NCBI GenBank assembly: GCA_050273025.1
Contig: CP158635.1
Coordinates: 3,844,001-3,908,000 of the forward strand
DNA length: 64,000 bases
From: Cenococcum geophilum
Taxonomy: Eukaryota
Direction: 5' to 3'
The notes below the pieces were generated by a model. It was not told the DNA's origin, did not search any database, and saw only the letters and a list, made by a program, of their open reading frames with translations. A program made the position numbers and the translations under genes. Of the stretch, positions 697 to 56,653 are shown piece after piece. Position 1 is the first letter of the stretch. Every line of letters starts with the position of its first letter.

Positions 697-1120
697 TATA
701 ACGGAACCTTATAGTAGATACTACAATAGGCTTATTATTAGGCTAGGTATATAGGTAATGCAAATTAAAGTTAATAACGTAATAATAACTAGTGGAGTGG
801 TTGCCTAATAGATTAACTCTAATTATATTCTAAGAATTACTATAAGGAAGGAACTATCTAGGTAAGGACTAAGGGTCCTTAAATATATAACTATACTCCT
901 ATAAAATCCTTCTTATACGTAATATACGTATACTCTATTTACTCTATTATAGATCCTATAGATCCTATAGATTATATAAATTATATTATATAACCTCGGT
1001 TACTATTCCTTATTATATAGTTTTATTAGCTCTATCTTAGACTATATTTATATTAATTAACTAGCTTCTTCTAACTCTTTTTTAAGTAGTTATAATATTA
1101 TACTTAAAGCGTCCGTAACA
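697..1120 (-). repeat. 3' LTR of G1 (424 bp)
   Basis: Direct repeat of 8233-8655; adjacent to the PPT. Confidence 0.93.
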
Positions 1121-1228
1121 CTATCTCCCTCCTCTTAATTTTTATCCTTAAAGATTTCTAATATCTCTAAGTTATTTACTAAAGGTGTAATATCTATCTA
1201 ATTAATTTAGTTAATATTGTTGCTTATT

Positions 1229-1934
1229 ATACCTAAAGCAATTTCTTCTTCTTTAACTGCTCGTCGTATTCGCACTATTACTGCAATATTATCTCTTAGT
1301 GAGATTATACTATCTCCGTATTCTCGCTACTTAAAAAAGGGGTTAGTTTATATTGCGTTAGTAAACCCTTCTTTATAATAACTATCCTTTTACTTAAAGT
1401 ATACTAAAGTAAATATTTATTTATCCTATAACATTTGCTTTATTTCTAATACTAAATATACGCGACCTATTACTCTTAATAGTTATCTAGTTCCCTAATT
1501 AATTTATCTTAGGGTTTTATATTTAATCTACTGCTATATAGCTAGATAATAAACTATTTATTACTCTAGTAGAGTTATACTAATCCTAAGACGCTAAACG
1601 GGAGGCTACTAATGCTTAGTAATGGGCCCTTAAGTCTTATCTAGCGGTATTTACTTAGTTAATTTATCTTAAGAAGGTACGTAAGAAGATTTATTTTAAG
1701 GAGTAGAAACTTATAAAATAGGGTTTATAAGAACTTAGTAATAAAAAAACGGATTCTTCTCTAACTAAGAAGGAAATAGATCTAAGTAGTTTGGCAACTA
1801 CTTTTCTTAGGTCCCCCTTAGGTAACTTATTTTTTAGTAATCCTTTTTTATTAATGCTACCTAACCTAATTTCTTTTAATACTCCTATACCTTTTTTATA
1901 GTATTTTTTAAATTCTCTAGTAGCTCCTAGGTAG
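1229..1934 (+). pseudogene. Antisense spliced gene in G1: Cys6 zinc-cluster-like plus coiled-coil protein (RIP relic)
   Basis: De-RIPed reading MPKAISSS..PCSRCSKKGLVCIALADPSSRQPSSCSECTKANIRSSCDV. TAT/TAC codons at 1319, 1328, 1349, 1391, 1400 and 1427 give Cx2Cx6Cx13Cx2Cx8C. Intron about 1458-1512, then a helical segment ARLIRLEKVRKK..LVEQGLQEL. Confidence 0.72.
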
Positions 1935-4900
1935 TCTTAGCGTAGCCTATCCACTTAACTTTATACTATATTTTATTATTAATATCTTTATAACTAATAA
2001 TCCTTAAAACTTACTATTTGTCTTTTTTATACCCTCTATATATATCTACCTTATAGACTAGTGGTTTAATATTTCTATATACTAGTTTTAGCATTATAAT
2101 ATACTATATAGAGTAGATCTTTATTTTAGCTAGTAAGTTTAACTTAAATATAACTGGTAAAATCCTTTACTTAATCTTAAAAGGTCCTAGTTTAACGTAG
2201 TTTAACTTCTTACTTAATTATTAACTCTTAAAAATTTTATATAGTAGCCATACTTTATCTCCCTCTTTAAGATCTAGTTCCTTAGATCTCTTAGCATTAT
2301 AGTATCTTTTTATTTTTTATTATACTATCTTTACTAATTCCATAAGGTCTATATAAAGATTTATTAATATCTTTATTCTCTATTTAGCTATACTACTTAT
2401 CTTTTTTGCTTAATATAGCAATAATAATATCCTTAGCTTATATCTATAATTTACCTTAAATAGTAATATGCCTATTCCTTTTTAAGGTATTATATTATAT
2501 ATAAACTATATAACTAGTAATAATAATACCTAATTATTTTATATATAATTAATATAATGTTTTAGATACTGTTCTAGTATCTAATTTAGTCTCTTTATTT
2601 AACCGTCTATCTACAAATAATATACAGTAGAAGTTACTACTCTAACTCCTTATTCCGCTAAGAATACCTCCTAAAATACTACTATAAATCTTAGATCTCT
2701 ATCTAATATAATTTTACTTAATACTCTATATCTTATAAATACTTCTTTAATATAAATTCTAGTAATATCTTCTAGTAATATTTCTTCTATATATGCTATA
2801 AAGTATCCCTACTTTATAAGCTTATTTACTATTACTAAGATTTTATTATAATCTTATCTAGTAATAGGGTCTCTTAACTTTAATAACTTAATAATAAAGT
2901 CCTATAATATAACCTCCTATAGTCTCTCTAGTATTTTAATAGGTTATAGCCCTCTATATAGCTTATACCTTATTAGTTTATTTCTTTAATAATCTAGGTA
3001 CTCTTTTATAACTTTTTATACTAAGCCCTAAATTCCATTAATAATATACTCCTCTTAAAGTCTTAACACTAAGCCTATAGCTTTATTATATTCTTAAGTT
3101 ATTCCCTTATAGAAATCTTCTATAAAGTATTCTGCTATACTTTTTAGAATATATATTACTTCTTAACTTTTATATATATCTATTTATAGATCTTCTAATT
3201 ATACTTTTAGAATCCTTTATACCTAAAAGCTTTCTAGTAACTTATAAACTCTATCTAGTTCTTCTTAAGTTATTATAATTTTTGGATAATTATATCTAAT
3301 CAGTTTATCTATATCTTTTTATAGTAAAGCCCCTAATAGCTTCTTATTATTTTATAGTTTAGCCTTTTAACTTAGAGCATCTACTTATATATTATCTATA
3401 CCCTTAATATACTAAATCTTAAAATAGTATTCTATAAGTATCTCTGCCTATTTAACCTATCTTTAGTTAAGCTCCTTTATTATTAAGAATCCTATTAGGT
3501 TCTTATAATCTATCTTAACTATAAATAGTTTTTCTATACCTTATAAGAATGCTCTCTATTTCTTTAATACTATAACTATACCTAATAACTCCTTATTATA
3601 GATATTATAGTTTAACTCTAGTAGTGTTATCTTCTAACTATAGTATACCACTAGGTGCTATCTATCTTAATACCTTTATATAAAGTACGCCCCTAATATA
3701 TAGTCTAATATATCTATTTCTATAACTATTTCTAGTTCTAGTTAATAGATCTTAAGAATTGGCTCCTAGGTAAATAACTCTTTAACTTTTTTAAAGAGTT
3801 TCTTTTATTCCTCTCCCTATACCTATAGTTCTTCTTTCTTTATTAATTGTATAAATGGTTTAATATCCTTTAACTATTACGCTATAAACCTTTTATAGTA
3901 ATTGCAAAACCCTAGGAATAATCTTAACTATATAACGTTTTCTAGTTTTTACTAATTTACTATAGCCTTAATCTTCTTTAGATCTATACTAAGTTAGCCT
4001 AATTTAATAATAAATCTAATAAAATCGGTTTTCCTAGTAAAGAACTTGCATTTTTTTAATTGCTACTAGTATCTGTTCTTATAGTCTCTTTAAAACCCAT
4101 TTAATATATTCCCCGTATTCTTCCTTAGTTATTAAATAGATAATAATAATATTAAAATATACTATAATAAATTTATCTAAGTATTCTCCTAATATATTAT
4201 TAATACGCTTTTAAAACGTTACTAGTGCGTTTATAAGCCTAAATTATATAACTAATAGTTTATACAGTCCTTTCTTTAACCTAAAGGCTGCCTTTTATTT
4301 ATTACCTTCCTTAATTCTAATCTAATAGTATACCTATCTTAAATCTATCTTTATAAAGATTTACGCATTACCTATTTTATCTTAAATTTCGCTAATTAAG
4401 GGTAAAGGATACCTATCCTTTCTAGTAATGCTATTTAACTATCTATAATTAATATACAGCCTTAGTTTACTATTTTTCTTTAGTATAAATAGTACTGGAT
4501 AACCCGCTAATAACTGCGATAGTCTAATATATCCCTTTCATAGATTTTCTTAAATAAACTCTTTTAATACTCTACCTTCTTTTTTAGTAAGCTTATAGAT
4601 TAGAAAGAACCTTAGACTTATTCCTGGTTTTAATTCTATCTTATAGTCCTATACTATATACTCTAACAGCTTTTCACTCTTTAGTAACTATAGTTTTTTG
4701 CCATACTTATGGTATCTCTTTAGTATATAACTTAAGCCTCGCTTAGTCTCTTTATATATTACTCTAACTTAGTACTATACTATCTTAGCTTATTATCGCA
4801 TTTTATGGCGTTAAGTATTTTTAATATTAACTTAACCTATAACCTAATCGATCCTTAGATTATATTTTTATAACTAAGGCATTCCTAATACTGCCTTATT

Positions 4901-7900
4901 ATTCCCTAATGGTAATATATTAAAAGATATCTTAATTTATCTCCCTTTAATAGTTAACTAAATAGGTCCTGTTTTAAGATTAATAATGCCTCCTCTATAG
5001 GCTATTAGATCTCCTAAAATCGTTACTAATAGGTAAGGGTGCTCCTTTTTCCTATATAGTAAACCTATTCTTCTAACTACTATTAGCAAGATGTGGTTCC
5101 TTATTGCTCCACTATCTATTAATACCTTAAACTGTTAATCTTGCCACTTAACTCGTAAATTTAGGTATTATCCTTAAATTCCCTTAAGGGTCTAAGGCTC
5201 TACTACTGGTTTCCTCTAGTTCTATAGGCCTCCACTTTTCCTAACTATTAGCTGCTTAATTCTATGTATACTTAGTCTAACTTAGGCCAATACTTAGTTT
5301 GCTTTTTATCCTTAATATACTATAGACATATATTCTTTAGGTATTCCTACTACTATTATTTATTTAGGCATTCTTCCGTAAGGAATCTTTTTAGCTAAAG
5401 TATTAAGTCTCCTAACTCCTAAACTTCTACTAGATGCTAACTATATATATATTTAGCATTTCTATATCTCTATTTTTTTACTAACCAATATATTCTTATA
5501 GGATATTTTTAGTGCTTATCCTTAGGTGCTTTATATATGTTATATATATTATCTATATATATAATCTATGCTAATATATAATATGCTTAGTGTTTTAGGT
5601 TAACTCTTAGCTTATCTTTATCCTTAAGTTTAAACCTTTCTCGTGTTAATCTAAACATTACGACTTTATTTATAGGTACTAAGATGCGTCTCTTACTTCT
5701 CTAGTCCTCTAAACGCTCCTCTAGATCTTTTAATATTATAATTAAGGCTCCTTTAATATAATTTATGGCCTTCTCCGTAATTAGGTAGTCTTAGATAACT
5801 TTCTCGTCTAGCTATATATAGAAATCTTCCTATTTGTTATTATGCCTTTACCTATACTACTTTTAGTATAGCTACTAGAGTGTATACGGCTTGTTTATAA
5901 GGAAGTATCTTCTTATTACTATATTATAATAGCCCTTTATGTGTCGTTCCTTAAACCTAGTTAAGATCCCTAGATCCTCTTCTTGTTCCAGTTTAGTAAG
6001 CTACTTAGCTTTTAGTGTGCCTGCCCTAGGCCTATTGGTAATTCTTTATACTGGCGCTCTATCCCTTATACGTCCTAATATGCTAGATCTCTTGTCTAGT
6101 TTCTGTTCTTACTATAAGGTAATTCTTACTCTAAACTCCTCCATGGTTTCTTTCCTGTCGCGTCTTATAAGTAGATCCTTAAAGTCTACTTACTTCTTAA
6201 TCTCGGTATTGACTTTTTAATTTTTAGGCCGAACACTATATTCCCCTAGTAAGTCCTCTAGGTCTATATATCTATCTCCTAGTCTAGTTGCTATTTATGC
6301 CGCAGATTCTCTAATCTATAAAGAAGCTACTTACCTCTTGCTTATAGGTGTCCTTATTTATACTCCAAATTCTTAATCCCTTAAATTCTTTAATCCTAAG
6401 CTCGCTTCTAACTTAAGCTTTACTCCTACCTTAGTCTAACTAGGCTTAGGTATTCTTATCTCGTTTTAAGAGTCTTAAATCTTACTTATCTCGTCTTAAG
6501 AGTCTTATACCTATAGGAAACTCTATCCCGAGCTTATTCGTATATCTTTAAACTAAGCTACTACTCTACTCTATTGGTTTTCGTCCGTTATAGGTCCTTA
6601 AGCTTGCCTTATCTTATCTTAAGAATCTTAGTCGTCTCTTATCTCATCTTAAGAATCTTAAGCCTTTAGCCTTTTGCCTTTATTAAGTGCCAAAGTAGTT
6701 TACTATCCTACTTCTCTTACGTCTTACGAAGCGATAGATATTATATCTAGTGGGGTCTTAATCCCTACTAATGTTCCCTATTCTATAGTGGAATTATCCT
6801 CTACCTCTTATATAATATCTTGGAGGTCCGTATACTCCTAGTAAGCTGCTCTTATTGCCTTGTTGTTATAAAATATTTCGCCTTTATTAAATTTATTGTC
6901 CTTAATATCCGATCTATAAACTAGTTTATTGGTTCCTCTATACTCTATAGATTTTGGCTTCTATAGCTAATAGCTTATACTATACTTAGCGTCTTTATAA
7001 ATTTAGTATGCGTTATTATAACAAAACGCGAAACTTCTAATTAAATATTCCTTTGTTCCTTATAGTGCACTATTATCACTCTATATATATATATCTCCTA
7101 CTAGTTAGGTTCCCTTTATTATATAGTAACTCTAACTATCTTTATAATCCCTTATAAAATAACCCTATTTCCCGCAATTTATATAAGCTCTATTTTTAAA
7201 CTATTAACTTTGCTATAGAGTCCGCCTAAACATCTTCTACTACTAAGACCCCTAGTTTAGCCTCTGCTTCTTAGTCCTATAATTACTAGATCCTTAACCT
7301 CTAGGTTTCTATAGTTTCTTACTCTATTTCTTATAGGCTTCTTTAATACTACTTAGGTCTATTAGCTCTACGCCATACCACAGTTTCTAATTTAGCTTTA
7401 GTTGTTGCGTGCTCTACGCCTTATATAACTATAAAACTTTATCTTAACCTCTCTTAGCCTATTCCCTTTAGTAGATCTAATTGTTAATTTTAATTACTTA
7501 ATCTATTAAGTCCTATAGGGTTTCCGCATCTTCCATTAGGATAATTATATCTTAGACTTTAGCCTTAAGTCCTTACTTATACTATGCCATAAGCGCCTTA
7601 TTATTCCACTTAACTTATATTACTAACGTTTGGAACTGCGTCGTATACTTAATTACTAAGGTTCGTTATATAATGTCTTGGAGTTTTCTTTCCGCTATAG
7701 TTACCGCCTCTAGGTCTCCAAACATTTATATAAGTCGCTCTATAAATCCGTTCTAGCTTAAGAACATAAACCGTACCTCTTAGTTTATAGTTATTATTCT
7801 ATTTGCCTAGATTTTTATAAGGTAAGATTTAAACTATTTAAGTGCCCTTTCTATTAAGAACAATCCTGCATACGCTATTTAGTCTATAGGTATTACCAGC

Positions 7901-8232: not shown

Positions 8233-8655
8233 TATAACGGAACCTTGTAGCAAGTACTATAATAGGCTCGTTAATAGGCTAGGTGTGTAGGTAACGTAAG
8301 GTAAAGTTAATAAGAAATAATAACTAGTAGAGTAGTTGCCTAATATATTAACTCTAATTATATTCTAAGAATTACTATAAGGAAGGAACTATCTAGGTAG
8401 GGACTAAGGGTCCTTAAATACACAACCGTACTCCTATAAAATCCTCCTTGTACGTAATATACGTATACTCTATCTACTCTATTACGGATTATGTAGATCC
8501 TATAGATTATATAGATTACGTTATATAATCTTAGTTACTATTCCTTATTATATGGCTCTACCGGCTCCATTCTAGACCGTGCCTAAATTAACCAACTAGC
8601 TTCTTCCGACTCTTCCCTAAGTAGTTATAATATTGTACTTAAAGCGTCCGTAACA
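8233..8655 (-). repeat. 5' LTR of G1 (423 bp)
   Basis: Direct repeat of 697-1120. Confidence 0.93.
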
Positions 8656-22185: not shown

Positions 22186-23091
22186 TTAAGTTATTATAAG
22201 ATTTTAAGGGAGAATAGTGGCTATAAATAAAAGATATAAATAAATAATTTAGTCCTTAAAGCCGACTACCCTTCTAAAAAAGAGTAGGAAGGATTTAAAT
22301 ATAAGGGGATCTTGTAAATAGGGGGCTATAAGAACACGATTGTAAAATAAAATAGATTAGTAAGAGAGACGAATCCTTAAGGAGGTAAGGCCTCTAGGAT
22401 TGTAGAGACTATATACTACGGGTATGTACCTCTAGCACGTAACCAGCGACTATTTAAGGGGCGTCTAGGGGTTGTCCTAAGGGCAACCTAAGGTGTTTGC
22501 AATAATATCCCTTACAAGAGCTGTTTTAGTTAATTAAGTACTACCAACTAAACTTAGCCTGGAGTTAACTTAACCTTAATTCTATACTTACTCTTAAGAT
22601 AAGATTGGAAATTATTACTAGCTAAAGCACTATACGGTAGATCCGTACAGTATTTGCAGTAAAAAATGCGGTTTTTACCCTAGAATTCTAGCTCTGAGCC
22701 AGCCTAGGGTAGACAAGCGTGCTCCTATATTTTAATAGCTAAGCGCTTTCTAGTTATTTTCGACTTCGTTTTAATTAATTCCTAAGTTAATAAAGGCGTA
22801 AGAAAAGATAAATCTGCCTTAGAAGCCATTTATTGTACGAATTTATAGATAATAGAAAAATTTTGCGGGTTATTAGTAATAGCGTTAATTAATATTAATC
22901 TTATTAATACTTATTGATAACAATATTGATTAGTAAGATTGATAATAAAATTATTAACAACTACGCTGGTCTATATCTACTTACCTGTCTACATCTGCCT
23001 ACCCATTAGTATCTCCCTATTTATGCCTACCTGTCTATACTACCTTGATTTAATCGATCGATTAAATCGTTTATAGTGTTCGCTAGCTAGT

Positions 23092-23482
23092 CGTTGTCGT
23101 CTAGTTCTGGCGACGGTTGTCTGGCTCTAGCGACGGTCGTCTAGTTCTAGTAACGGTCCTCTAGTTTTGGCGACGGTCGTCTGGTTCTAGCGATGGTCGT
23201 CTATCTTTAGTAATAGTCGTCTAGCTCTGGCGACGGTCGTCTGGCTTTAGCGACAGTCGTTTAGTTCTAGCGACGGTCGTCTAGTTCTAGTAATAGTTGT
23301 TTAGTTCTAGCGACGATCGTCTAGTTCTAGCGATGGTCGTCTAATTTTGGCGACGGTTGTCTAGCTCTAGCGACGGTCGTCTGTCTCTGGCGACAGTTAT
23401 TTAGCGACGGCGACGGTCGTCTAGTAACGGCGACGGTTGTCTGGTTCTAGCGATAGTTATCTAGTTCTAGTAACGGTCCTCT
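23092..23482 (+). repeat. 20-bp minisatellite (GACGGTCGTCTAGCTCTGGC)n, about 19 units, in element A
   Basis: Period 20 is directly visible; no spacers. Confidence 0.92.
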
Positions 23483-23714
23483 GCTAGCTGCCGTTCTAGT
23501 GCCTCCCTAGGTAGGGAGGATATAAGGAAAGAAGGAAGGGTAAAAAATAAGGCGGCTATATAGGTAGAGATACGTATAGAGGCTATTAGGAATATAGCGG
23601 GGACCTAATGTAGAGCTTTATATAGAGCCTTATACAGAGCCTTATATAAAGCCTTTAAGTAATAAAACTATATAAGATTATATAAGATTGTATAATTAGT
23701 ATATAACTTTACCT

Positions 23715-25045: not shown

Positions 25046-25487
25046 AAGGCTGTAGTTAGGCTACTAGTTAAGCGGAGCGATATTAAGGCCGACTTAAAGG
25101 ATTATAAGGGTCGAACGCCACTGTTATTGGCGGTAGAAAAAAGGCATAAGGCTATAATTAAGCTACTAGTTAAGCGGAGTGGTGTTAAGGCTGACTTAAA
25201 GAATATATAAAGTTAAACGTCACTATTATAGGCGGCAAGGAATAGGCACGAGGCTATAATTAAGCTGCTACTTGCTGAAGACGTTAATATAGACTCTAAG
25301 AATAAAGATAGTTGGATACCGATATTATAGGCGGCAGAGAATGGGCATAGGGAGATAGTTAAGCTGCTACTTACCGAAGGAGTTAATACGGACCCTAAGG
25401 ATAAATATAGTTGGATACCGCTATTATAGGCGGCAGAGAATAGGCATAAGGAGATAGTTATACTCTGCTTATGAAAGGGGCTGATAC
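25046..25487 (+). pseudogene. Ankyrin-repeat host gene fragment 2 (about 4 repeats)
   Basis: KAVVRLLVKRSDIKADLKDYKGRTPLLLAVEKRHKAIIKLL..; two further WIP(I/L)L*AAEN(G/R)H.EIV repeats; RIP stops. Confidence 0.9.
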
Positions 25488-28400
25488 TGTTAGTTATATA
25501 ACGTAACTCACCAATAACGACTACTCGAGTAGATTATAGTAATATTAGTTAATATATTTCTTATTAATTAAAATAAGAAAGGGCGAGGAGCTTAAGACTT
25601 CTTATTACGCTAGTGCCGCCGCAATATATAATAACCGCTTACCTTATTCCCAATACTAGCAACTCTTCTTTTATAGTTGCTATATATATATAAATACTGC
25701 TTAACTAGTATACTAAATACTAATCCTCTTTACTTACTATTGCTATTATAATATAAGTCTTATTATTCTAAAATTTGCCTCTTAATATATAGTGCTTTTC
25801 TTACTTAAAAGTTAGAGTTAGATATTATATTAGGGCCGCTAAGGCGCTAGTTATAAGTAAGCTAATAGTAATTTTCTATTTTAGGAATGGAAAATCCTAA
25901 TTAGCTAGTTAGAGTTAAGGTTTATAGAATATTATACTCCTACTCCCTTTTAACTTAACCTTTAACTTATATATATAGAGTATTTATATTAATAAATGTT
26001 TCTAAAGCCTTATTTAGGTTTACCTTCGTTATTATATTTACTAGGTTATCTTAACTATTAATTTATTAAAATTTAAAGAGTTTTTGCCGTTTATAGGATT
26101 ATTAAAGTGCTATAATATTAATTGTAAGGCGCTTCTTCTTTATAGTACTAAGCTTAACTAAACACTTATAGAGGGAGTATAAGTTAGTATATATAATTAT
26201 AGGGATAACAGGAAGTTTAAGTTAATCTATAATTATTTTTAGGGTAGTTCTAATTGTAATTACTATATTAACTCCGCTAACTATTCTATATATCTCTAAT
26301 ATTAAAACGCTTTAAGTAATATACTTATTATAGTACTGTAACGCGTAACCTGGACAGGGAGCCTAGTTAAGGGTTCGGCTAAGGACTTAGCATTATAACG
26401 CGTATATATTACGCCTTTACCTCCTATATATACCTCTCCTCTTCTCCTTAGCTTAGTATCTTTATAATATAGCATTCTATAAGCTTCGGTTTAGAGGCAT
26501 TTATACAAGCCGTAATATTATACTAAGCTTACCCTATATTGCCTAGGAAGGCCTTAATAATATCCTACCCTAAAAGAAACTTTATCTGTAACGACGCGTT
26601 AATACGCTATACTTAGACACTAAAACAACTCTATATTGCCTGGGAAGGCCTAGATAATATCCTACTTTATAAGCTAAATAGGACTAGACCTATACCCTTA
26701 GAATTAAAACCAAAGTGTATAATACTAACAAACCTTAGGAAGCTAATAATGGCACCTAAAGCTAGCTTATTTAAGAGAGCTGCCTCTACCTAAGAGGAAC
26801 CTGAGATCTAATTAGGATTAGAAATTAAAGATAATAATAACGTTATAAACGTACGCGAGTAGATTCGCGCCTTTATAGCTAACTAGGAAGCTAATTATCT
26901 AAAGGCAAGAAATATATAAGAGACTCTATAAGAGATCTTAGAAAGCCTTATAGCCCTATAAAATAGCCTAGCTTCCCCTTCTTAAAGCCTTAGCTAACTT
27001 ATTTACTCTACTAAGTATAATATACTAGGGAGTACGGATATAATAACGAAGTAATTAAAGTCCGTTAAGCTCCCTAACTCCCTACTATTATCTAATAGGA
27101 TAAACCCTACCTTTAAGAATTAGAGGATTTAAGTATAAGGAAAGCTCTACGTTAACTATAACTATTTCCTTTTTAAAGAAGTCAAAATACTCTACCTTTT
27201 TGGTTGAACTACTGGGGACGCTTAACGGCACCTTTAAGCCAAGTTTAAGGACAATTCCCCTATCTAATTTATATCTATTAACGAGATAATATAGTACCTA
27301 GCTGCTATTTATATTAACCCAAATAAAGTACGGGATGCCTAGTATAACTATAATCGCCTAATAATAAAGCTAAACCAACTCTTTGCCAGATTTTAAACTT
27401 AATTCCTATACCTTATAGGAGAAGGCTAAGTCCCCCTTAAAAATTACCGATTGGACCTATATAATAAACTAACGATTAGGCTGTAAGAAAAGATTATAGT
27501 AACCTTAAACAACCTACCAAACTATAAAAGACTTACGGCTTATTACCTATTATTAGATATAGAACTAAAGTAAATTAACGCCTACCCTAATTAGTAGAAG
27601 CGACCCTAAAACCCGTTAACTACACCTATAGGAGCTAGAGTAGGAAGATAAGTTATAGCGGTCCCTGCTCTAAAAGTAGTTACTACTATATATCTATAAG
27701 CCTCGCCTAACCCGCTACGTATTACGCCCTTAACTAGCAATCGCCGTAATACCCTAATCGACCCTACTATGGTTATATATTACAACTGCGATAAGGATAG
27801 TTACTTTACCTTATCTTACCTAGAGCTAAAGGATATAGGCGATATTAAGGAGATAAAGGAAGGAGAGACATCTAACAAGTTGGGAAAAAAAGAACCCTAG
27901 GGAAAGACTTCCCCCCTAGGGTACCCTATTAATCTTAAAGAGATTAATTTAAGTTAGTTAATAGGTAGAAAACACTTTACGGTTCTATATATAGTATTTT
28001 AAAATAGATATAGTGTTAATATAACTGCCCTTATTAATACTAAAGTAAATAGTTTTACCTTTATAAATACTGCTTATTTAAATAACGTTGCTAAGTTTCT
28101 AAATGTAAAAGCTACTAGGCTAAAGAAGCCTGTTTAAGTAAGAGGATATAATGGTTAGGCTAGTAAGCTGGTTACCTATATCCTAAAGTTATATATCGCT
28201 CTTAACGGACGACGCCAGTATAGTATCCCCTTTTGCATCCTAGACCTAGGGTCCTATAATATAATCCTTAGCTAAAAATAGATGTCCTATTTTAATATTT
28301 GGCTAAATATATAATAAAGATAATTTGTCTGGCTAGAGAGTAGACTAAAATTACCTTCCTTTATTAGGGAAATCTAAACTAACTATAAGACACTAGCCGC

Positions 28401-31400
28401 GAGGGCTAATCTTACCTATTAGTAGGATGTTAGGGACCGCAACCTAGCCTTTACCTAAGAAGATGCCCGTTATAAGGCCGGAAGGAACTCTTTTATACCG
28501 ATAAAGATACTCCCCTAAAGTGCTATAGTTAATAAAAACTCTACGTATAGTAGCGGGATAGATAGTAATGTAGATAACGTCTAAATTACGCAGATTTAAC
28601 TAATATAGAAGAGAATATACTAATAGGACATAAGAGATAACCTCTAAAAGATATAATAGGAGCTAAAAGGAGTGATAATAACGCCTTTACCCTAAAAGCC
28701 CCTAAGGTCCTATATACCCCTATTATTACGCAACCCCCCTATAGTAGATATTGCGGCAATTAGCGCTATAGTATTCTACTTTAATATATATAGGAGGGAT
28801 AACGAGGTCTTTATAACTAGCTTATATAAAATTAACTAGATTATTAACGAGAGGGAAGAAAAGCCAGCTAAGGAAACTAATAAGGAACTAGTTAAACGCC
28901 TCCTCCCTACTATTTATACGGGATATAAGAATGCATTCTTAAAAGCGGCTTTAGGTAAGTTACCTCCTTACTAGATATACAATTATAAGATTTAATTAGA
29001 AGCTAATAACTTGCTAGGATATAGCCCTCTATACTAATAATTAATAGATAAGCTAAAAGTAATAAAGTAGTACTTAATTAAGAACCTTAATAAAGGTTTT
29101 ATTAAGCCAAGCTAAGCCCCTTTTACTTCCCCTATTCTATTTATAAAAAAGGCTAATAAAAGCCTTTATTTCTATATTAACTATTAAAAGCTAAACGCTA
29201 TTACTTAAAAGGATTAGTATCTTATTCCTTTAATTAATAAAACCCTTATATATCTAAGCTAGGTAAAGATCTTTACTAAACTTAATATCCGCTAAGCTTT
29301 CTACTAAATTAAAATAGACCCTATATCTAAAGATTTAATAACGTTCTATACCCATTATAGGTCCTATAAATATAAAGTCCTTCCTTTTAGACTAATAAAT
29401 AGGCTAGCTATATACCAAAGGTATATAAGCGATGTCCTTTTTAACTACCTTAATAAATTCTATACAGTATATCTAGACGATATTCTTATATACTTAAACG
29501 ATGAACTTAAGTATAAAGTTTATATAAAGAAGGTCCTAGAGAGACTACGGAATATAGGCTTATAAGTTAATATTAAGAAATATAAATTTAGAGTAAAACG
29601 TATAAAGTACCTTAGGTTTATTATTATTATAAAAGGAATTAAAGTTAATCCTAAAAAGGTTAAAGCAATCTATAACTAAAAACCCCCTTATACCGTAAAA
29701 GGAATCTAGTCCTTCCTTAGTTTTTATAACTTTTACTATTAGTTTATCCGTAATTATAGAGTTATAGCTAAGCCTTTTATACAACTTACCTGGAAAGATA
29801 CGCCCTTTACCTTTAATAGTGACTATATAGAAGCCTTTAAAGAGTTAAAAGAGCGGCTTATCTCTTCTTTAATCCTTTATTACTATAACCTAGACCTTAA
29901 ATTAATGTTAAAAATAGACGCTTTTAACGGAGTTATAGCGGGAATCCTATTACAGCTATATTAGGACGGCGAATAGTACTCTATTACCTTCTTTTTAAAA
30001 TAATAAACCTAGCTAAGTGTAACTACGAAATATATAATAAAGAAATGCTAGCTATTATTTAATTGCTATCCTAATAGCGCGTGGAGCTTAAAGGTATAAA
30101 CTCCCGGATTAAGATATATATAGATTATAAGGCCCTAGAGTACTTTATAACTATAAAGTAGCTTACTAGATAGTAAGCCTAGTAGGCTAAAGTACTTTCC
30201 TAATTCTTCTTTATAATTATATATCGTTTTAGTAAGTAAAACTCTAAGGCTAATGCCTTAACTTAAAGAGAATGAGATATAGGACCTTAGAATAAGCTAA
30301 AGACCTAATACCAGACGCGTGTACTCCTCTATCCTAAATAGCTTAACCTATAGATCCTTAAGGAGCTAAACTCCTAGTAAAACGAGCTAGTACTAATAGA
30401 GGAGTCCTTAGACGAACTAATAGGGCTAATTAACCGCCTCCTAACTATAAACCGTACGGCTAACGCTTTAAAGGCCCTCCGCGATTAAGCTATAAAAAGA
30501 GACCCCAATTTTAAAACGGAGGAAGGATTGCTCCTATATTAAGAGCGGCTTATAGTCCCCAACGTTAATAATTTATAGACTAAACTAATTCGCAAAGCCT
30601 ATTACTAAGTCTCTATGGTATACCCTAGTAAGAATAAGACCTGTAAAATTATTAGTGGCCGCTACTACTGGCCTAGGATGGCTATAGATATTAATTAATA
30701 TATATAGAACTGCGATAACTACTGAAGAGCTATAATCCTACGAGATAAAACCCTAGGACTACTAAAACCGCTCCCAATACTAGAGCGCCCTTAGTAATAT
30801 ATCTCTATAGACTTCTATAAACTACCTATAGACCGTAACGGATATAATATAGTTATAATTCTAGTTAATTACTTTAGTAAGCGCCTATTTTTAATCCTCT
30901 ACTATAAGAATATTAATGCTAAAGAGGCGGCCTAGCTATATATTTACTACGTCTACTAAATTTACGGACCGCTAGATATTATTATATCTAATTATAGGCT
31001 ATAGTTTATATTAGCTTTCTAAAGCAAGTTTACCTAGATCCTAGGTATTAAGCTAAAGCTCTTTATAGTGTATTACCCTTAAATAGACAGTTAGATAGAG
31101 ATTATAAATTAGTATTTAGACTAGAGACTCCGGCCCTTTATTAACTACTTTTAGGATAACTAGTTTAAACTACTCCCCCTAATAGACTATACCCAAGCAA
31201 CCTTACCCTATAACTTTATAGGGTTTGCCCCTATTTAGCTAAAAATGGGCTACTTGCCCCATATAAGCTTTAACTAAAAAAGACTAGAAGAACCTTGGAC
31301 TATATACGAGAAACTATCCTATAGGTAAGGCCCAGTAGTACGCTAAACGCTTAGAAGAGGCCTAGATAGTAGCCCGTAAAAACTTAGAAAAAGCCTAAAG

Positions 31401-31597
31401 GTTAATAGAATAGCAGGTAAATAAACACCGCTAGGAACCTAACTTTGCCCCTAGTAATAGGGTCTAGGTTATAATAAAGAATTAAAGGACTAAGCGGCCT
31501 AGTCGTAAGCTAGACTATTAAATAGTAGGACCGTATAAGGTCCTAAAGAAGGTAGGCAACTTATATAAGGTAAAGCTCCCAAATTTAATTAGAGTTT

Positions 31598-47400: not shown

Positions 47401-50400
47401 CTAAAAGGGTAGGTACTAGTTTGTTAGGGCTAGTGTGACGGCTTATATAAATGCGTCTAAACCAAAGCTTGTAGAATACTATTTTATAAAGATACTAAGC
47501 TAAAGAGAAGGAAAAGGGGTCGCTAGGATAGATGTAAACAAATATATAGGGTAAGCCGCTAAGGCGCTAGCTTTGGGCGGGCTAATTATAGGTCGGCAGA
47601 ATATAGTAGAATTTGGCAGGTAACGTGCGATAGCGCTATTACATCACCCCCCTCTTTAAAAGAAAGCCTGCCCTTAGGCTTAGTTAGAAATAGGGTAGTA
47701 CTAGGCTTATAAACGTAGGATTATAAAATATAAGATAAGGAGACAAAGGGGATATAAGTACGTCTAAACTAAGTATAAAGGGCGATTATAAGCTAAGTGG
47801 AAGCACTAAGCTAGAAAAAGTAGCCGCTAAAAGTCTTAGCATAGATCTGACTAATTAGACAACTTTAACCGGCAGTCGAAGTTCCTAAACATTTAAAATT
47901 TTACAGTACTGGTAGAAAACGGTAAAATATAGCAGAATTTGGCAGATAGCTATATTAGGGCTTTAGGGCGTTTTTATCCCTATATTCTTCTAGTAATTTA
48001 TCGTCTTTATTATACCAGCATTCCATCTATTCGTTTAGGTACTTTAGGGGTCTAGGCGTATTAGGGTATTAGTTATAGAATTCTTTAAGCTTCTAGGGGC
48101 AGCCTATAAAGTTCCACGTAGGGTACTAGGTTGGGTTAGGATTATAACCCTTCTATTAAATATAGTATTTTAGCACTTCCCGTACTATCTTACAGGCCAG
48201 TATTTTATTAACCTCCTATTTATTATCACCGTTTACTTAAACTAGTAGGGGAGGCTCGTTCTTTTATCTGGGCAATAAGTCGTTTATAACTTTCCGTAAC
48301 TTATTTAGTAAGAAAATAAGGTAAACCCTAATTAAATCTAAGAGCTTTATCTTATACAAGTTACCTATTTTTTTAAAAACCTTATATAGTCCTACTATCT
48401 AGTGGTCCAGCTTACGGCTAGGTTGTTTAGTCTTCTAATTTCTTATTATAACCTAGACCATATCGCCAGGGGCAAAATTAGGCTCTTAACGGTATTTATT
48501 CGCCTACTATTTTATTAACCTCTAAGCTTTTTCTAGGTTCTCGTGGGCTACTATCCAGGCTTCCTCCAATTATTTAGCGTACTGTTAAGCCTTAGTATAG
48601 GATAGCTTCTCTTATATAGTCTAGGGTTCTTCTAGCCTTTTTTAGTTAAAGCTTATATAGGGTAAGTATCCCATTTCTAGCTAAATCGGGGCAAACCCTA
48701 TAAAGTTATAGGGTAGGGTTGCTTACGCGTAGTCTATTAAGGGTAGTAGTTTAGACTAGTTATTCTAGAAATAGTTAATAAAAGGCCTAAGCCTCTAGTC
48801 CAGGTACTAATTTATAATCTCTATCTAACCGTCTATCTGGGGGTAATAAGCCGTAAAAAGCTTTAGCTTAATGCCTAGGATTTAGGTAAACTTATTCCAG
48901 AAGACTAATATAAACTATAGCCTATAATTAGACATAATAGTATCTAATAGTCTATAGATTTGGTAAACGTAATAGACATATAGCCGGGCTACCTCTTTAG
49001 CATTAATATTCTTATAATAGGGAATTAAAAACGGGCGTTTATTAAAGCGGTTAACTATAACTATAACTATAACTATATTATATCCGTTACAGTCTCTAGG
49101 TAGTTTATAGAAGTTTATAGAGATATACTACTAAAGGCGCTCTAGTATTAAGAGTGGCTTAAGTAGTCCTAGGGTCTTATCCCATGGAATTATAGCTTTT
49201 TAGCAGTCTTTGCAGTTCCGTATATATCAATCAATATCTATAATTATTCTTAGCCAGTAGTAGTAGCAGTTAATAATTTTACGGGTCTTATTCTTGCTAA
49301 GGTGTGCCGTAAAGACTTAGCAATAAGCTTCGCGGATTAGTTTAGTCCGTAGATTATTAATATTAGGGACTATAAGCCGCTCCTAGTATAGGAGTAATCC
49401 TTCCTCCGTCTTAAAATCGGGGTTTCCTTTTACGGCTTATTTACGGAGGGCCCTTAAAGTATTAGCCGTGCGGTTTATAGTTAGGAGGCGGTTAATTAGC
49501 CCTATTAGCTTATTTAAGGACTCCTTTATTAGTGCTAGCTCGTTTTACTAAAAGTCTAGCTCCTTAAGGATCCGTAGGTTAAGCTATTCTAGATAAAAAA
49601 AGGCGCGCGTCTAATATTGGGTCTTTAGCTTATTTTAGGGTCCTATATCTTATTCTTTTTAAGTTAAGGTATTAGCCTTAGAGTTTTACTTACTAAAATA
49701 ATATATAATTATAAAGAAGAATTAGGAGAGTATTTCGGCCTACTAGGCTTCTTATTTAGTAAGCTGCTTTATAGTTATAAAGTACTTTAGGGCTTTATAG
49801 TTATAAAGTACTTTAGGGCTTTATAATCTATATATATCTTAATTTAGAAGTTTATACCTTTAAGCTCTGCGCACTATTAGGAGAGTAATTAAATAATAGC
49901 TAGCATTTCTTTATTATATACTTTATAGTTATACTTAGCCGGGTTTATTATCTTTAAGAAGAAAGCTATAGGGTACTATTCGCCGTTTAGATGTAACTGT
50001 AATAGGATTCCTACTATAACCCTATTAGAGGCGTCCGTTTCTAGCATTAATTTAAGGTCTAGGTTATAGTAATAAAGAATTAGGGAAGAGATAAGCCGAT
50101 CCTTTATCTCTTTAAAGGCTTTTATATAGCTATTATTAAAAATAAAAGGCGTGTCCTTCCTAGTTAGTCATATAAGATATTTTACTATAATTCTATAGTT
50201 ACGGATAAACTAGCGGTAAAAGTTATAAAAGCTAAGGAAGGATTAGATTCCTTTACTATATAAAGGGGCTTCTAGTTATAGATTGCCTCTACCTTTTTAG
50301 GGTTAACCTTAATTTCTTCTATAGTTACGATAAACCTAAGGTATTTCATACATCTCACCCCAAACTCGCATTTCTTAATATTAACTTATAAGCCCGCGTT

Positions 50401-53400
50401 CTATAGTCTCTCTAGGACCTTTTTAATATAAACTTAATACTTAAGTTCGTTATCTAAGTATATAAAAATGTCGTCTAGGTATACCATATAGAATTCGTTA
50501 AGGTAATTAAAAAGAACGTTATTTATATACCTTTAATACGTAGCCAGTCCGTTTATTAGTTTAAAAGGAAGAACTTTATATTTATAGGAACTATAACGGG
50601 TACGGAATATTATTAAATCTTCAGATATAAGGTTTATTTTAATTTAGTAAAAAGCTTAACGGATATTAAGTTTAGTAAAGATCTTTGCCTAGCTTAAATA
50701 TATAAGGGTCTCGTTTATTAAAGGAATAGGATACCGGTTCTTTTAAGTAATAGCGTTTAGCTTTTAATAGTTAATATAAAAATAAAGGCCTTTATTAGGC
50801 TTTTTTATAAACAGAATAGGGGAAGTAAAAGGGCTTAACTTAGCTTAATAAACCCTTTATCTAGGTTATTAATTAAGTACTACTTTATTGCTTTTAGCTT
50901 ATCTATTAATTAATAGTAGAGGGGGCTATAGCCTAGCGAGTTATTGGCTTTTAATTGAATCTTATAATTATACGTTTAATAGGGAAATAACTTATCTAAG
51001 GCCGCCTTTAAGAATACATCCTTATAGTCTATATAAATGGTAAAGAGGAGGCGTTTAACTAGTTCCTCGTTAGTTTCCTTAGCTAGCCTTTCCTCTCTAT
51101 TATTAATAATTTGGTTAATCTTATATAGGCTCGTTATAAAGACCTTATTGTCCTTTCGGTATATATTAAAGTAGAACGCTATAGCGCTAATTGCAGTAAT
51201 ATCTATAGTAGGGGGTTTGCCTAATAATAGGGGCGTATATAACTTTAGGGACTTCTAGGGTACTAGCGTCATTATTACTCCTTTTAGCTCCTATTATATC
51301 TTTTAGAGGTTATTCCTTATATCCTATTAATACGTTCTTTTCCATACTAGTTAGATCTATATAATTTAGACATTATTTATATTACTATTTATCCCGCTTC
51401 CGTATATAGAGTCCTCTTTAAATATAGCGCTTTAGGAAAGTATCTTTATTAGTATAGAGTTCTTTCCAGCTTTACGGCGGGCGTCTTTTTAGGTAAAGGC
51501 TAGGTTATAGGCCTAGATATCCTACTAGTAAATAGGGTTAGCCCTTACGGCTAGTGTCTTATAGTTAGTTCGGATCTCCCTAATAAAAGAGGGTAACTTT
51601 AGTCTATCCTCCGGCTAAACAAACCGTCTTTATTACACGTTTAACTAAATATTAAAATAGGATATCTATTTTCGTCTAAGGATTATATTATAGGACCCTA
51701 GGTCTAGAATACAAAAGGGGATACTATATTAGCGTCATCTATTAAGAGCGATATATAACTTTAAGACGTGGGTAATAGGCTAACCGGCTCAGCTGTTATA
51801 GCCTTTTACCTAAATAGGCTTCTCTAGTTAGATGGATTCTGCATTTAAAAACTTAGCAACATTATTTATATAAGCAGTATTTATAAAGGCGAAGCTATTT
51901 GCTCTAGTATTAATAAGGGTAGTTATATTAACTCTATATCTATTTTAAGATACTATATATAGAACCGTAAAATGATTTCTACCTATTAACTAACTAAGAT
52001 TAATCTCTTTAAGATTAATAGGGTACCCTAGGGGGAAGTCTTTTCCTAGGGTTCTTTTTTTCCCAATTTATTGGACGTTTCTCCTTCCTCCATCTCCTTA
52101 ATATCGCCTATATCCTTTAGCTCCGGGCAGGATAAGGTAAAGTAACCCTACTTATTATAATTAAAGTACGTAGCTAAGGCAGGGTTAATTAGAGTATTAT
52201 AGTAAATATTAGTTAATGGCGTGGTATATAACTAGTCGGGCGAGGCTCGCTAGTGTATAGTTATAACCGCCTTTAGTATAAGAGCAGTCGTAACTTATCT
52301 TCCTGCTCTAGCTCTTATAGGTATAACTAGTAAGTTCCAATTATTACGGAGTTGCTTCTACTAATTAGGGCGGGCGTTAATTCACTTTAGTTTTAAGTTT
52401 AATAATAGGCAATAAGCTGCAAGTCTTTTATGGGTTAGTAGGTTATTTAAGGTTATAGCGATCTTTTCTTATAGCCGGATTATTAGCTTATTATATAGGT
52501 CTAATTAATAGTTCTTAAGGGGAACCTAGCCTTCTCCTATAAGGTATAAGAATTAAGTCTAGAATTTAGTAAAGGGTTAGTTTAGTTTTATTATTAGGCG
52601 ATTATAGTTATAACAGGCATCCCATACCTTATTTAGGTTAACGTAAATAGCCGCTAGGTACCGTATTATCTTATTAATAAATATAAATTAGATAGGGGAA
52701 TTATCCTTAAACTTAGCTTAAAGGTGCCGTTAGGCGTCCCTAGTGGTTTAATTAAAGAGGTAGAGCATTTTAGCTTCTTTAGAAAGGAAATGGTTATAGT
52801 TAATATAAAGCTTTCCTTATACTTAAATCCTCTAATTCTTAAAGGTAAGGTTTATCCTATTAAATAGTAGTAGGGGGTTACATCAGGAATTTTTTTTTTG
52901 GGCGCTTTGTTGCAGATTGCGGCAATTTGCTGCAAACTGTGCGATTTGCGTGGTCGTATATGGTCGTTAGCGATTCGCGTAAACCGCGCATTTCGCAACA
53001 AAATTGCAGCATCTGCTAGCAAATTGTAGCAAAACGCTCAACTACCAAACTAATTCTAGCTTTTTGCTACCCTACAAATAAATAGCGCGCAAACTGTACG
53101 AACTATATAAACTGTATAAACTGTACGAACTGTATAAATTGTAACTATATAAATTATTATTATATTATATAATAACCAAATTATTATATATTCCCATAGA
53201 TTTCTATAATATACTTTTAAATATATTTATATTATAACTATATAAAATATAGAGCTATCTACTTTAGGCATTAAGGGGGAAGCCTCTTATAGAGGCTCCA
53301 AATTATCTACCTGCCTACCTATCTGCCTACCTACCTACCTACCTACCTACCTGCCTACTTATCTGCCTACTTACCTACCTACCTATCTGTTTATCTATCT

Positions 53401-53534
53401 ATCTATCTATCTATCTGTCTGTCTATCTGTCTATACCTACCCATCTATACCTACCTATCTGTGCCTACCTGTCTATATTACCTTAATTCGATTAATCAAT
53501 CAAATCGTTTATTATGTTCGCTGGCTAGTCGTTT

Positions 53535-53932
53535 AAACGGTTGTCGTGTGGCTCTAGCAGCGGTCGTGTGGCTCTGGCGACGGTCGTCTGGCGATGACGA
53601 CGGTCGTCTGGCTCTGACGGTCATCTAGCGACGGCGACGGTCGTCTAGCTCTGGCGACGGTCATCTGGCTCCGGCGACGGTCGTCTAGCTCTGACGACGG
53701 TCGTCTAGCTCTGACGGTCGTCTAGCTCTGGCGACGGTCATCTAGCGACGGCGACGGTCGTCTAGCTCTGACGACGGTCGTCCAGCTCTGACGACGGTCG
53801 CCTGGCTCTGGCGACGGTCATCTGGCTCGTCTAGCTCTGACGACGGTCGTCTAGCACTAGCGACGGTCGTCTAGCTCCGGCGATGGTCGTCTAGCTCCGG
53901 CGATGGTCGTCTGGCTCCGGCGACGGTCGTCT
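53535..53932 (+). repeat. 20-bp minisatellite in element B
   Basis: GACGGTCGTCTAGCTCTGGC units, with some 17-bp variants. Confidence 0.9.
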
Positions 53933-54096
53933 ACTAGCTATCGTTCTGGTGTCTTCCTAGGTAGGGAGGATATAAAGAAGGGTAAAAAATAAGGTGGCTA
54001 CCTAAGTGTATATAGGGGGTATACTTAGCAGAGGCACGTGTAGAGGCTATTGGGAATATAGCGGGGACCCGATAGTAGTATATCCCGCGTACACAT

Positions 54097-54720
54097 AAAG
54101 GCTTTGTGTAGAGCTTCGTATAGAGCCTCCGTACGCAGAGCCTCTATACGCAGAGCTTTATATAGAGCCTTCTGTAAAGCCTCATGTAGAGCTTTATATA
54201 AGAGCTTCGTGCAGAGCTTTGTGCAGAGCTTCGTGTAGAGCTTCGTATAGAGCTTTATATAGAACTTTATACAGAGCTTTATGCAGAGCTTCGTATAAAA
54301 CTTCGTGCAGAGCTTCGTATAGAGCTTCGTATAAAGCCTTATATAAAACTTCGTGCAGAGCCTTATATAGAACTTCGTGCAGAGCCTTATATAGAACTTC
54401 GTGCAGAGCTTCATATAGAGCTTTGTGTAGAGCCTTATACAAAGCTTTGTGTAGAGCCTTATACAAAGCTTTGTGTAGAGCCTTATATAAAGCCTCTATA
54501 CGCAAAGCTTTGTGTAAAGCCTCGTATAGAGCCTCGTGTAAAGCTTCGTATAGAGCTTCGTATAGAGCTTTATATAGAGCTTTATATAGAGCTTCGTACA
54601 GAGCTTCGTACAGAGCTTTGTATAGAGCCTCTATATATAGAGCTTTATATAGAGCCTTGTATAGAACCTCGTATAAAGCTTCGTATAGAGCTTTATATAG
54701 AGCTTCGTGCAGCGCTTTAT
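54097..54720 (+). repeat. 12-bp tandem repeat (AGAGCTTCGTAT-like), about 50 units, in element B
   Basis: Period 12; source of the spurious YKALHEAL/RASY ORFs. Confidence 0.92.
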
Positions 54721-55058
54721 ACAGTTTTATAGTATTTTTATTACATTTTTATTACATTTTTGTTGCAGCCAAAAATTAGGGTCTGCTTAAGTCGCTTAAG
54801 TCGCAATTTTAAGCAGACCCCAATTTTCGGCTGCAATAACGCGCCTAAAAAAAAATTTCCTGATGTAGGGAGCTTAACGGACTTTAATTACTTTATTATT
54901 ATATCCGTACTCCCTAAGGTATTATATTTAGTAGAGTAAACAGGTTAGCTAGGGCTTTAAAAAGGGGAAGCTAGGCTATTTTATAGGGCTGTAAGGCTTT
55001 CTAGGATCTCTTATAGGGTCTCTTATATATTTCTTACTTTAAGATAATTAGCTTCCTA

Positions 55059-56653
55059 CGTTAGGAAAAAATTTACCAGTATCTAATTTTACTTTTCTGC
55101 CATTTTAGCATTTTCAGCATTTTCTAGCATTTAGCCGCCAAATGCCGCATTTATAATTAAGTATTAGCATTTAGCAGCTAAATATAGCATTTATTACTAA
55201 GTACTAGCATTTAGCCGCTAAATGCCGCATTTATAATTAAGTATTAGCATTTAGCTGCTAAATGCTAGAAAATGCTAAAATGGCAGAAAAGTAAAATTAG
55301 ATGCTAGTAATTTTTTCCTAAAGTTCTATATAAGGCTCTGTATAAAGTTCTACATAAGGCTCTATATAAAGTTCTATATAAGGCTTTACACAAAGCTCTA
55401 TATAAAGCTCTGCACGAAGTTCTATATAAAGCTCTATATAAAGCTCTATACGAAGTTTTATATAAAGCTTTATATAAAGCTCTACACAAAGCTCTATATA
55501 AAGCTCTATATAAAGCTCTTATATAAAGCTCTGTGTAAGGCTCTATATAAGGCTTTATATAAAGCTCTATATACAAAGGCTCTACGTACGGAGGCTCTAT
55601 ACGAAGCTCTATATAAAGCCTTTATATATACGCGGGATATACTACTATTAGGTCCCTGCTATATTCCCAATAGCCTCTATATATACCTCTGCCAAGTATA
55701 CCCCCTATATACACCTAGGTAGCCACCTCATTTTTTACCCTTTTTTATATCCTCCCTACCTAGGAAAACACCAGAACGACAGCTAGTAAACGACCGTCGC
55801 CAAAGCTAAACGACCGTCAGAGCCAGACAACCGTCGTCAGAGTTAGACAACTGTTGTTAGAGTTAGACGACCGTCGTCAGAGTTAGACAACCGTCGTTAG
55901 AGCTAGACGACCGTCGCCGGAGCTAGATGACCGTCGCCAGAGCTAGACGACCGTCGTCATCGCTATATAACCGTCGCTAGAGCCACACAACAACCGTTTA
56001 AACGACCAGCCAGCGAATATAATAAACGATTCGATTAATCGATCGAATTAAGGTAATATAGACAGGTAGGCATAGATAGGTAGGTATAGACGGGTAGGTA
56101 TAAATAGATAGATAGACAGATAGATAGATAGACAGACAGGTAGGCAGGCAGGTAGGTAGGTAGGTAGGTAGGTAGGTAGATAGGTAGGCAGGCAGGCAGG
56201 TAGGTAGGTTAGTAGGTAGGCGGGTAGAGGAGAACCATCGCTATATTATATTAAATTATCTAAAATAATATAATTTATTTTGCACCAACTGCATAGGAAG
56301 AGCAATACTTATTTATTGCTTAAAGTAAGTAAGATATATAGAATATGCGAAAAGGGCATTATATATAGAATACGCGAGAAGGGCATTATGTACAGAATAT
56401 ACGAGGAGGGCATTATATACAGAATGCGCAAAATGCATAATTAGCTGCACTGTATTATTAAATATAGCAGTATACCGCACTATATTGTTAAATACAGCAG
56501 TACGCAGCAGTATACCGCACTATATTATTAAATATAGCAGTATGCCGCACCTTAGTCAATACTATATACTACACGTTATAGTGCGCGGAATGCGCATTTA
56601 GCCGCTAAATGCTGCTAAATGCTGCAAAAATGCTGGTAAAATTTTTCCTGACG
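55059..56653. mobile_element. Non-autonomous TIR element C (2-bp TSD), core inverted relative to B
   Basis: TIR CGTTAGGAAAAAATTTACCAGTAT / ATGCTGGTAAAATTTTTCCTGACG. TSD TA; empty site in G3 about 26884. 12-bp array 55322-55625, 20-bp array 55788-55997, GTAG tract 56060-56228. Confidence 0.9.

Follow-up and report, generated by a model that had tools for sequence, protein, structure and literature searches.

A RIP-killed, spliced antisense gene with six ancestral cysteines between pol and the 3' LTR of a fungal Gypsy chromovirus

Do six tyrosine codons with the spacing of a zinc cluster, read on the plus strand beside the end of a retrotransposon pol gene, mark the remains of a real gene, and if so, what might its product have done? 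The window (the whole 64-kb stretch of DNA analyzed here) consists of a block of repeats from a fungus and is strongly marked by RIP (TpA/ApT 1.55-2.07, with CpA+TpG depleted). Judged by comparison of sequences, the antisense gene is real: it had six ancestral cysteines and a single intron, encoded a long charged helix, and overlaps pol at its 3' end. We put at about 95% the probability that the window holds a RIP-killed copy of an accessory gene of ~205 codons in two exons, lying antisense between pol and the 3' LTR in this family of fungal Gypsy chromoviruses.

The host element, G1, is assigned to the Ty3/Gypsy chromoviruses by its two LTRs, its polypurine tract, the order protease-RT-RNase H-integrase, and a terminal chromodomain, the last being a weak match below the cut-off (Table 1). 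The Pfam matches on pol were RVT_1 (1.3e-8), RT_RNaseH_2 (2.5e-16), SH3_Tf2-1 (5e-5), and gag-asp_proteas (0.0086); Chromo reached E 0.032 in the window and 0.0007 in a related locus, L016, both below the cut-off. The antisense gene occupies the plus strand between the polypurine tract and the end of pol. After the chromodomain, the first RIP-independent stop in the pol frame stands at 1696 or 1669, and there are few between 1630 and the LTR; if pol does run on to 1696 or 1669, it may overlap the antisense gene by up to ~230 nt.

Table 1. Coordinates of the G1 element and its antisense gene in the window.
Feature	Position	Strand	Basis or remark
3' LTR	697..1120	minus	LTR comparison
Polypurine tract adjoining the 3' LTR	1121..1136	minus	Read from sequence
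Exon 1: start codon, basic/Ser-rich N-terminus with predicted helix, six-cysteine cluster	1229..1457	plus	
Cys6 motif C-x2-C-x6-C-x13-C-x2-C-x8-C	1319..1429	plus	All six codons Tyr in this copy
Intron, 55 nt, phase 1	1458..1512	plus	RIP-mutated donor; branch-like site ~1494-1499; acceptor AG 1511-1512
Exon 2, long charged helix	1513..1730	plus	~75 residues in P0109
Exon 2, Ser/Pro-rich tail	1731..1901	plus	Probable stop 1899-1901
Chromodomain, end of pol	1879..2016	minus	Pfam Chromo, weak, spanning 2010-1900
pol: protease (weak match), RT, RNase H, then integrase SH3 domain	2086..5152	minus	Pfam
5' LTR	8233..8655	minus	85.6% identical to 3' LTR

Directly beside the 3' LTR, at 1-698, lies a second copy of the gag region (84.5% identical to 6658-7355 of the same element). 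No target-site duplication is seen next to the two LTRs, and the second gag copy does not resume past 8655, which suggests recombination or deletion after a nested insertion. Within the element, the long minus-strand stretch from the Gag zinc knuckle to the protease contains a His/Cys pattern (5500-5598), and in 45 gap-free matches from related loci its His, Trp, Cys, Asp, Cys, and His columns alternate with their RIP products; it is possibly a second metal-binding motif. Elsewhere in the 64 kb, four RIP-mutated repeats of 99-102 nt (25082-25480) have a 33-codon period, which we take to be that of ankyrin repeats. A 4.5-kb inverted pair (27075-31597 and 48323-52880, 82% identical) represents two copies of another repeat family, and an inverted-repeat structure of ~2.9 kb (53306-56228) is composed of 12-nt, 20-nt, and 40-nt tandem arrays, to which a 20-nt array 30 kb away (22974-23529) is related. 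A further Cys/Tyr spacing match runs on the minus strand from 34677 downward; the exon-1 profile does not match there, and it found no second copy of the gene in the 64-kb window.

The six TAT or TAC codons of the original prediction are present, in the frame of 1229, at 1319, 1328, 1349, 1391, 1400, and 1427. Their spacing was rejected as stand-alone evidence, as loose Cys/Tyr patterns are common in RIP-mutated DNA: a loose Zn2Cys6 spacing of Cys or Tyr occurs five times in the window, vs 1.6 per shuffle (30 shuffles), and within 1121-1934 it appeared in 1.5% of 2000 shuffles. Whether less-mutated copies carry TGT or TGC at these codons had been set beforehand as the refutation test. Related copies were drawn from public sequencing runs, protein collections, and metagenome loci. 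A scan with a degenerate motif, in which Cys or Tyr was demanded only at sites 3-5 and sites 1, 2, and 6 were left free, gave at least 122 matches in at least 121 metagenome loci (the 80 loci listed come from four assemblies). Every site is Cys in a share of 122 matches, namely 51, 68, 25, 30, 101, and 51 for sites 1-6, respectively, and the remaining codons are Tyr except for four. At the motif-unconstrained sites 1, 2, and 6, Cys or Tyr was found in 120, 120, and 122 of the 122. The original prediction thus withstands its refutation test. All of these copies are RIP-damaged, and only one kept all six cysteines; six are present in locus L095 and in the natural protein P0109.

Other sources gave the same alternation. 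A phmmer search of 1.84 billion proteins with exon 1 returned 60 at E <=0.001, of which 59 were aligned and one match of 370 aa was left out. Cysteine occupies the six columns in 15/59, 18/59, 5/59, 12/52, 18/52, and 15/45, and the other residues are Tyr but for three. Among reads, two DNA runs (17,793 and 10,415 contigs on 1150-2050) have A>G at 1329, in site 2, at ~45% and 40% of depth, as seen among the 40 variants listed of 317; read evidence for site 2 extends to three runs, and the end of one RNA-library contig encodes Cys at sites 2 and 3. The other six Tyr codons of the ORF served as a control: they are mixed columns, mostly derived from Arg, and of the 12 Tyr codons only the six of the cluster are Cys/Tyr columns. 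At the six sites, a transversion was found in 1 of 468 codons.

The window copy of the gene is dead, with 12 premature TAA or TAG stops in its 205 codons. Its start codon at 1229 reads ATA, whereas 22 of 77 full-span copies have ATG and the others ATA. The intron expected just after the motif was recovered, its splice sites being read from 77 copies: it begins 28 nt after the sixth Tyr codon, the donor has G in 13/77 and A in 64, followed by T in 77/77, and the acceptor AG is kept in 76/77. The end of the gene had to be moved. It had been placed at 1934, but 1932-1934 reads TGG in 5 of 78 aligned sequences and was rejected as a stop, whereas 1899-1901 is a stop in 78/78, with zero RIP revertants. 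The ORF thus probably ends 33 nt earlier, at 1899-1901, though it is possible that 1899 is a heavily RIP-mutated Trp codon instead of a true stop. With this end, the overlap with pol that had been predicted is kept, but it takes in the tail of the chromodomain and not its core.

Selection on the protein was sought in transversions, because RIP cannot make these, and the transversion-variable columns were counted over 32 RIP-blind purine/pyrimidine clusters. In exon 1, third positions vary in 37/76 columns vs 8/76 and 16/77 (p=2.6e-7); across the intron, transversions are flat over the codon phases (p=0.86); and in the helix of exon 2, third positions again vary most (51/72 vs 28/71 and 25/72, p=1.5e-5), with the change of phase expected from the splice. 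Codon periodicity is not significant in the tail of exon 2 (1731-1901, p=0.28), where four-fold sites do vary more (16/44 vs 0/11), and the leader and LTR have no coding signal. The wobble positions of exon 1 are common to the plus frame and to a long, nearly open shadow of the pol frame. Variation in exon 1, however, tracks the four-fold sites of the plus frame (34/54 vs 3/21, p=2e-4) and not those of the pol-frame shadow (24/48 vs 13/27, p=1), and the selection is therefore assigned to the plus frame. The same test does not separate the plus frame (p=0.042) from the codon-aligned minus frame (p=0.019) in exon 2; that minus frame has a stop at 1523 in 78/78. Length differences are multiples of three in 27 of 28 copies for exon 1 and, through two or three events, in 8/8 copies for the intron.

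The gene is carried by the element. The SH3/chromodomain end of pol lies on the opposite strand in 68 of the 69 copies with enough DNA, and an LTR is upstream in 73/73. Distances in the gene and in pol correlate (r=0.50, the largest of 999 permutations giving 0.24; 59/62 sequences), indicating that the antisense gene travels with the element. It nevertheless changes ~2.6-fold faster than pol (transversion distance 0.097 vs 0.037).

A profile search found 1985 relatives among 5099 candidates, 120 of the 1985 being listed. P0109, from a JGI contig of 1246 nt, is an unmutated protein of 152 aa that has all six cysteines and reads across the predicted exon junction; its joined frame may derive from RNA or from DNA that lacks the intron. 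When P0109 was aligned with the spliced frame of the window, the 144 positions comprised 48 identical, 63 RIP-type, and 33 other, i.e., 111 are identical or differ by one-way RIP, and the alignment score of 144 compares with at most 38 in 300 shuffles. By BLASTP, P0109 gave no alignment with the window's exon-1 frame and E 5e-7 with exon 2. A word-seeded protein search with exon 2 found no relative among seven candidates; the exon-1 profile matched two longer proteins, both unspliced read-throughs; and the viral contigs searched contained no relative, locus L001 being rejected as a chance match.

What kind of protein this was is less straightforward. Zn(II)2Cys6 proteins have six cysteines spaced x2-x6-x(5-16)-x2-x(6-8), and the spacing here falls within that range. 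The likeness to this class that had been suggested holds for spacing and for the six ancestral cysteines, but is not enough for a GAL4-type assignment. PF00172 matched 4 of 8 exon-1 translations weakly (best 18.9 bits vs a cut-off of 21; 13.6 bits for P0109), no match was listed for 36 RIP-damaged members, and Pfam found none in the window's own frames of the antisense gene. In GAL4-type proteins, the DNA-reading residue is a conserved Lys in the basic recognition loop between Cys2 and Cys3; the residue four after Cys2 is here Gly in 44/59, Lys in 10/59, and something else in 5/59. The best PDB sequence match was PPR1 (1pyi), which is non-significant at E 0.56, and profile A2 had no match among PDB sequences at E up to 10. 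Both PPR1 and the Pfam model pair their second half with the first half of the present cluster, and this alignment, together with Gly in place of the recognition-loop Lys, makes GAL4-like reading of CGG doubtful. GAL4-type factors bind CGG half-sites, according to the part of PMC10250231 consulted. Eight conserved CGG/CCG triplets occur in the LTR and leader, and these were rejected as evidence of binding. On sequence, then, the product appears to be built like a zinc-cluster regulator, yet it does not pass for membership in the GAL4-type family.

AlphaFold2 predicted for P0109 one continuous helix at residues 77-151 with pLDDT >95, with or without an alignment, and an additional helix at 13-30 when an alignment was given; in the Cys cluster, pLDDT falls below 50 at 32-39 and 41-48, and Foldseek with the model found no match in the PDB. 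The original prediction of a charged, heptad-like coiled coil is thus borne out as to the long charged helix; a test for helical periodicity gave p=0.34, short of significance. Among subfamilies, recurrent differences in helix length fall at 1591-1603 (-11, -7, and +4 residues in 6, 23, and 7 copies, respectively); that these steps keep the same face of an alpha-helix is suggestive only.

In common with GAL4-type factors such as PPR1, the product has six suitably spaced cysteines that a short linker joins to a long helix. It differs in the Pfam score, the order of its half-modules, and the Gly-for-Lys change already described, in being retrotransposon-borne, and in having ahead of Cys1 a segment of ~30 residues that includes a predicted helix; canonical GAL4-type architecture includes a middle homology domain, which is missing from its 205 residues. 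The nearest Atlas cluster (score 0.90, 77 members, Ascomycota, 204 aa) has the automatic name Zn(2)-C6 fungal-type; the next clusters are ascomycete and without names, and the Cys-cluster region alone scores <0.9. DUF3716 (PF12511) proteins, which the text seen of PMC8232023 places in a Zymoseptoria DNA transposon, are likewise small, transposon-borne, and fungal, but from a different class of element. Two of eight translations match DUF3716 weakly in the Cys region (E 0.03-0.04, 14 vs 22 bits, far below the cut-off), one Atlas cluster (score 0.77) points the same way, and the relation is a lead only.

As to function, the reading we prefer, at a little short of even odds, is that the product was a dimeric, zinc-binding protein of the nucleus that regulated the element, translated from a spliced antisense RNA whose start would lie within or close to the 3' LTR. 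Taking as given the position, orientation, ancestral cysteines, intron, protein-frame selection, and long helix, we infer a promoter, zinc binding, a dimer, nuclear action, and a target, as follows. Transcription, opposite in direction to the genomic RNA, would begin from a promoter within or beside the 3' LTR, and the transcript would then be spliced; the intron would survive retrotransposition because the genomic RNA carries it in reverse. The six cysteines would bind zinc and the long helix would pair two chains, the nuclear protein targeting the DNA or chromatin of its own element and so setting the element's transcription, perhaps with the Ser/Pro-rich tail as effector region.

Ahead of the antisense start, the leader (1141-1228) and the innermost 130 nt of the 3' LTR are conserved without codon periodicity, and at 991-1120 length changes of 1 nt occur in 20 of 73 LTRs. 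Variable columns number 21/130 in the inner LTR end and 17/88 in the leader, vs 62/146 and 73/139 in the rest of the LTR; 991-1228 is thereby a candidate region for cis-elements or a promoter. From one raw RNA run, of which ~12% was read, 15 reads were obtained, 13 of them <90% alike; they lie mostly at 1801-2048, with few starts, and all have one mate direction. In most stranded libraries that direction means plus-strand RNA, although the strandedness of this run is not on record, and the reads are thus a hint of plus-strand transcription of the antisense gene. The spliced joint 1457-1513 was not among the 15 joints listed of 24, and one RNA-library contig spans the intron unspliced.

A possible but doubtful alternative retains the same gene and makes of it an anti-silencing or adaptor factor, whose zinc module and helix would bind host chromatin, RNAi, or RIP-pathway proteins and not a DNA sequence. 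Plant transposons do encode anti-silencing proteins, the recognition-loop Lys is mostly absent here, and a host-facing factor might well change ~2.6-fold faster than pol. Relaxed constraint, however, would also account for the faster change, and RIP has damaged every one of the 122 copies examined, so that whatever protection there was failed in these genomes. Unlikely, and more so than the adaptor, is a helper of the particle or integration complex, engaged in nuclear import, tethering, or partnership with Gag or integrase like some retroviral accessory proteins. The basic N-terminus and basic end of the helix would suit it, as would co-divergence of the gene with pol, and such roles have been proposed for antisense extra ORFs generally (PMC7264820, in the part available); on the other hand, a chromodomain is already present for targeting, and separate antisense transcription would seem to fit a regulator better than a stoichiometric particle protein.

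We think it very improbable that the antisense RNA is the functional product, forming double-stranded RNA with the genomic RNA over the pol overlap, and that the protein is incidental. Selection on plus-frame amino acids is seen in both exons, and the six cysteines are all but free of transversions, even though the transcript necessarily runs across part of pol, most of the small number of RNA reads fall at 1801-2048, and a double-stranded RNA mechanism is named in the accessible part of PMC7264820. There may, of course, be an RNA role beside the protein. Least credible of all is that there is no plus-strand gene, merely the shadow of a pol extension or third sense ORF, or chance RIP-made Tyr codons: the lack of RIP-independent stops in the pol frame, its wobble positions coinciding with those of exon 1, the intron length changes in multiples of three, and the abundance of loose Cys/Tyr patterns are what one would expect from it, but the phase in which exon 2 is periodic does not fit the pol frame, exon 1 ignores pol-frame four-fold sites, intron, leader, and LTR lack periodicity, the LTR tolerates 1-nt length changes, and a sense-strand ORF or long pol extension as source of the signal is refuted by the phase shift, the four-fold test, and the existence of P0109.

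An antisense gene in this position is not without precedent. The additional gene brtn of the Boty-like (BcGypsy1) elements of Botrytis cinerea and Sclerotinia (Zhao et al. 2011, Virology 417:248, PMID 21802103; taken from citing passages in PMC8365987, PMC7264820, PMC4227169, and PMC5987419) likewise sits in a fungal Ty3/Gypsy element with a chromodomain, in antisense orientation in the interval from pol to the 3' LTR, the comparison being one of description and not of sequence. Those passages give no domain, intron, or function for BRTN, whereas the gene in the window has a Cys6 cluster, an intron, and a helix; no protein named BRTN is among the 120 of 1985 profile matches listed. In plants, extra ORFs with the same position and orientation are found in maize Grande (gene23), Retand, RIRE2, and PvRetro13, and gene23 is driven by a promoter of its own and encodes a product found in the nucleus; again by description, these are plant elements for which the part of PMC7264820 seen reports no six-Cys cluster, and the same text treats the function of antisense extra ORFs in LTR retrotransposons as an open question. 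The terms 'antisense', 'zinc', and 'GAL4' do not occur in PMC3248453. The antisense layout has therefore been in print since 2011, whereas we found no description of a product with a Cys6 cluster and long helix in the literature searched, subscription papers and figures lying outside its reach.

The anatomy of the antisense gene's product can now be stated: a module with six Cys and a long helix, both kept by purifying selection. As P0109 is natural and intact, zinc binding, dimerization, DNA binding, and LTR regulation are directly testable. A more speculative view, which we consider rather doubtful, is that of a transposon-specific zinc-cluster family, with halves unlike those of GAL4 (the second-half-like module coming first), serving this fungal Gypsy lineage as a self-encoded, spliced, antisense regulator of the LTR. 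HBZ is a helical bZIP regulator of an animal retrovirus. Its gene in HTLV-1 has an antisense promoter in the 3' LTR (PMC7264820, as far as available), and the likeness to an antisense, 3'-LTR-driven gene for a helical regulator is an analogy only, the one being bZIP and from an animal retrovirus, with no homology claimed. If such a zinc-cluster family exists, it would be a fungal counterpart of retroviral regulators of the HBZ kind and a possible donor to, or captive from, the largest class of fungal transcription factors. If the protein regulates its element, these fungal Gypsy elements would be 'complex' retroelements with a trans-acting factor of their own, and such genes will surface in fungal annotations as orphan zinc-cluster-like proteins.
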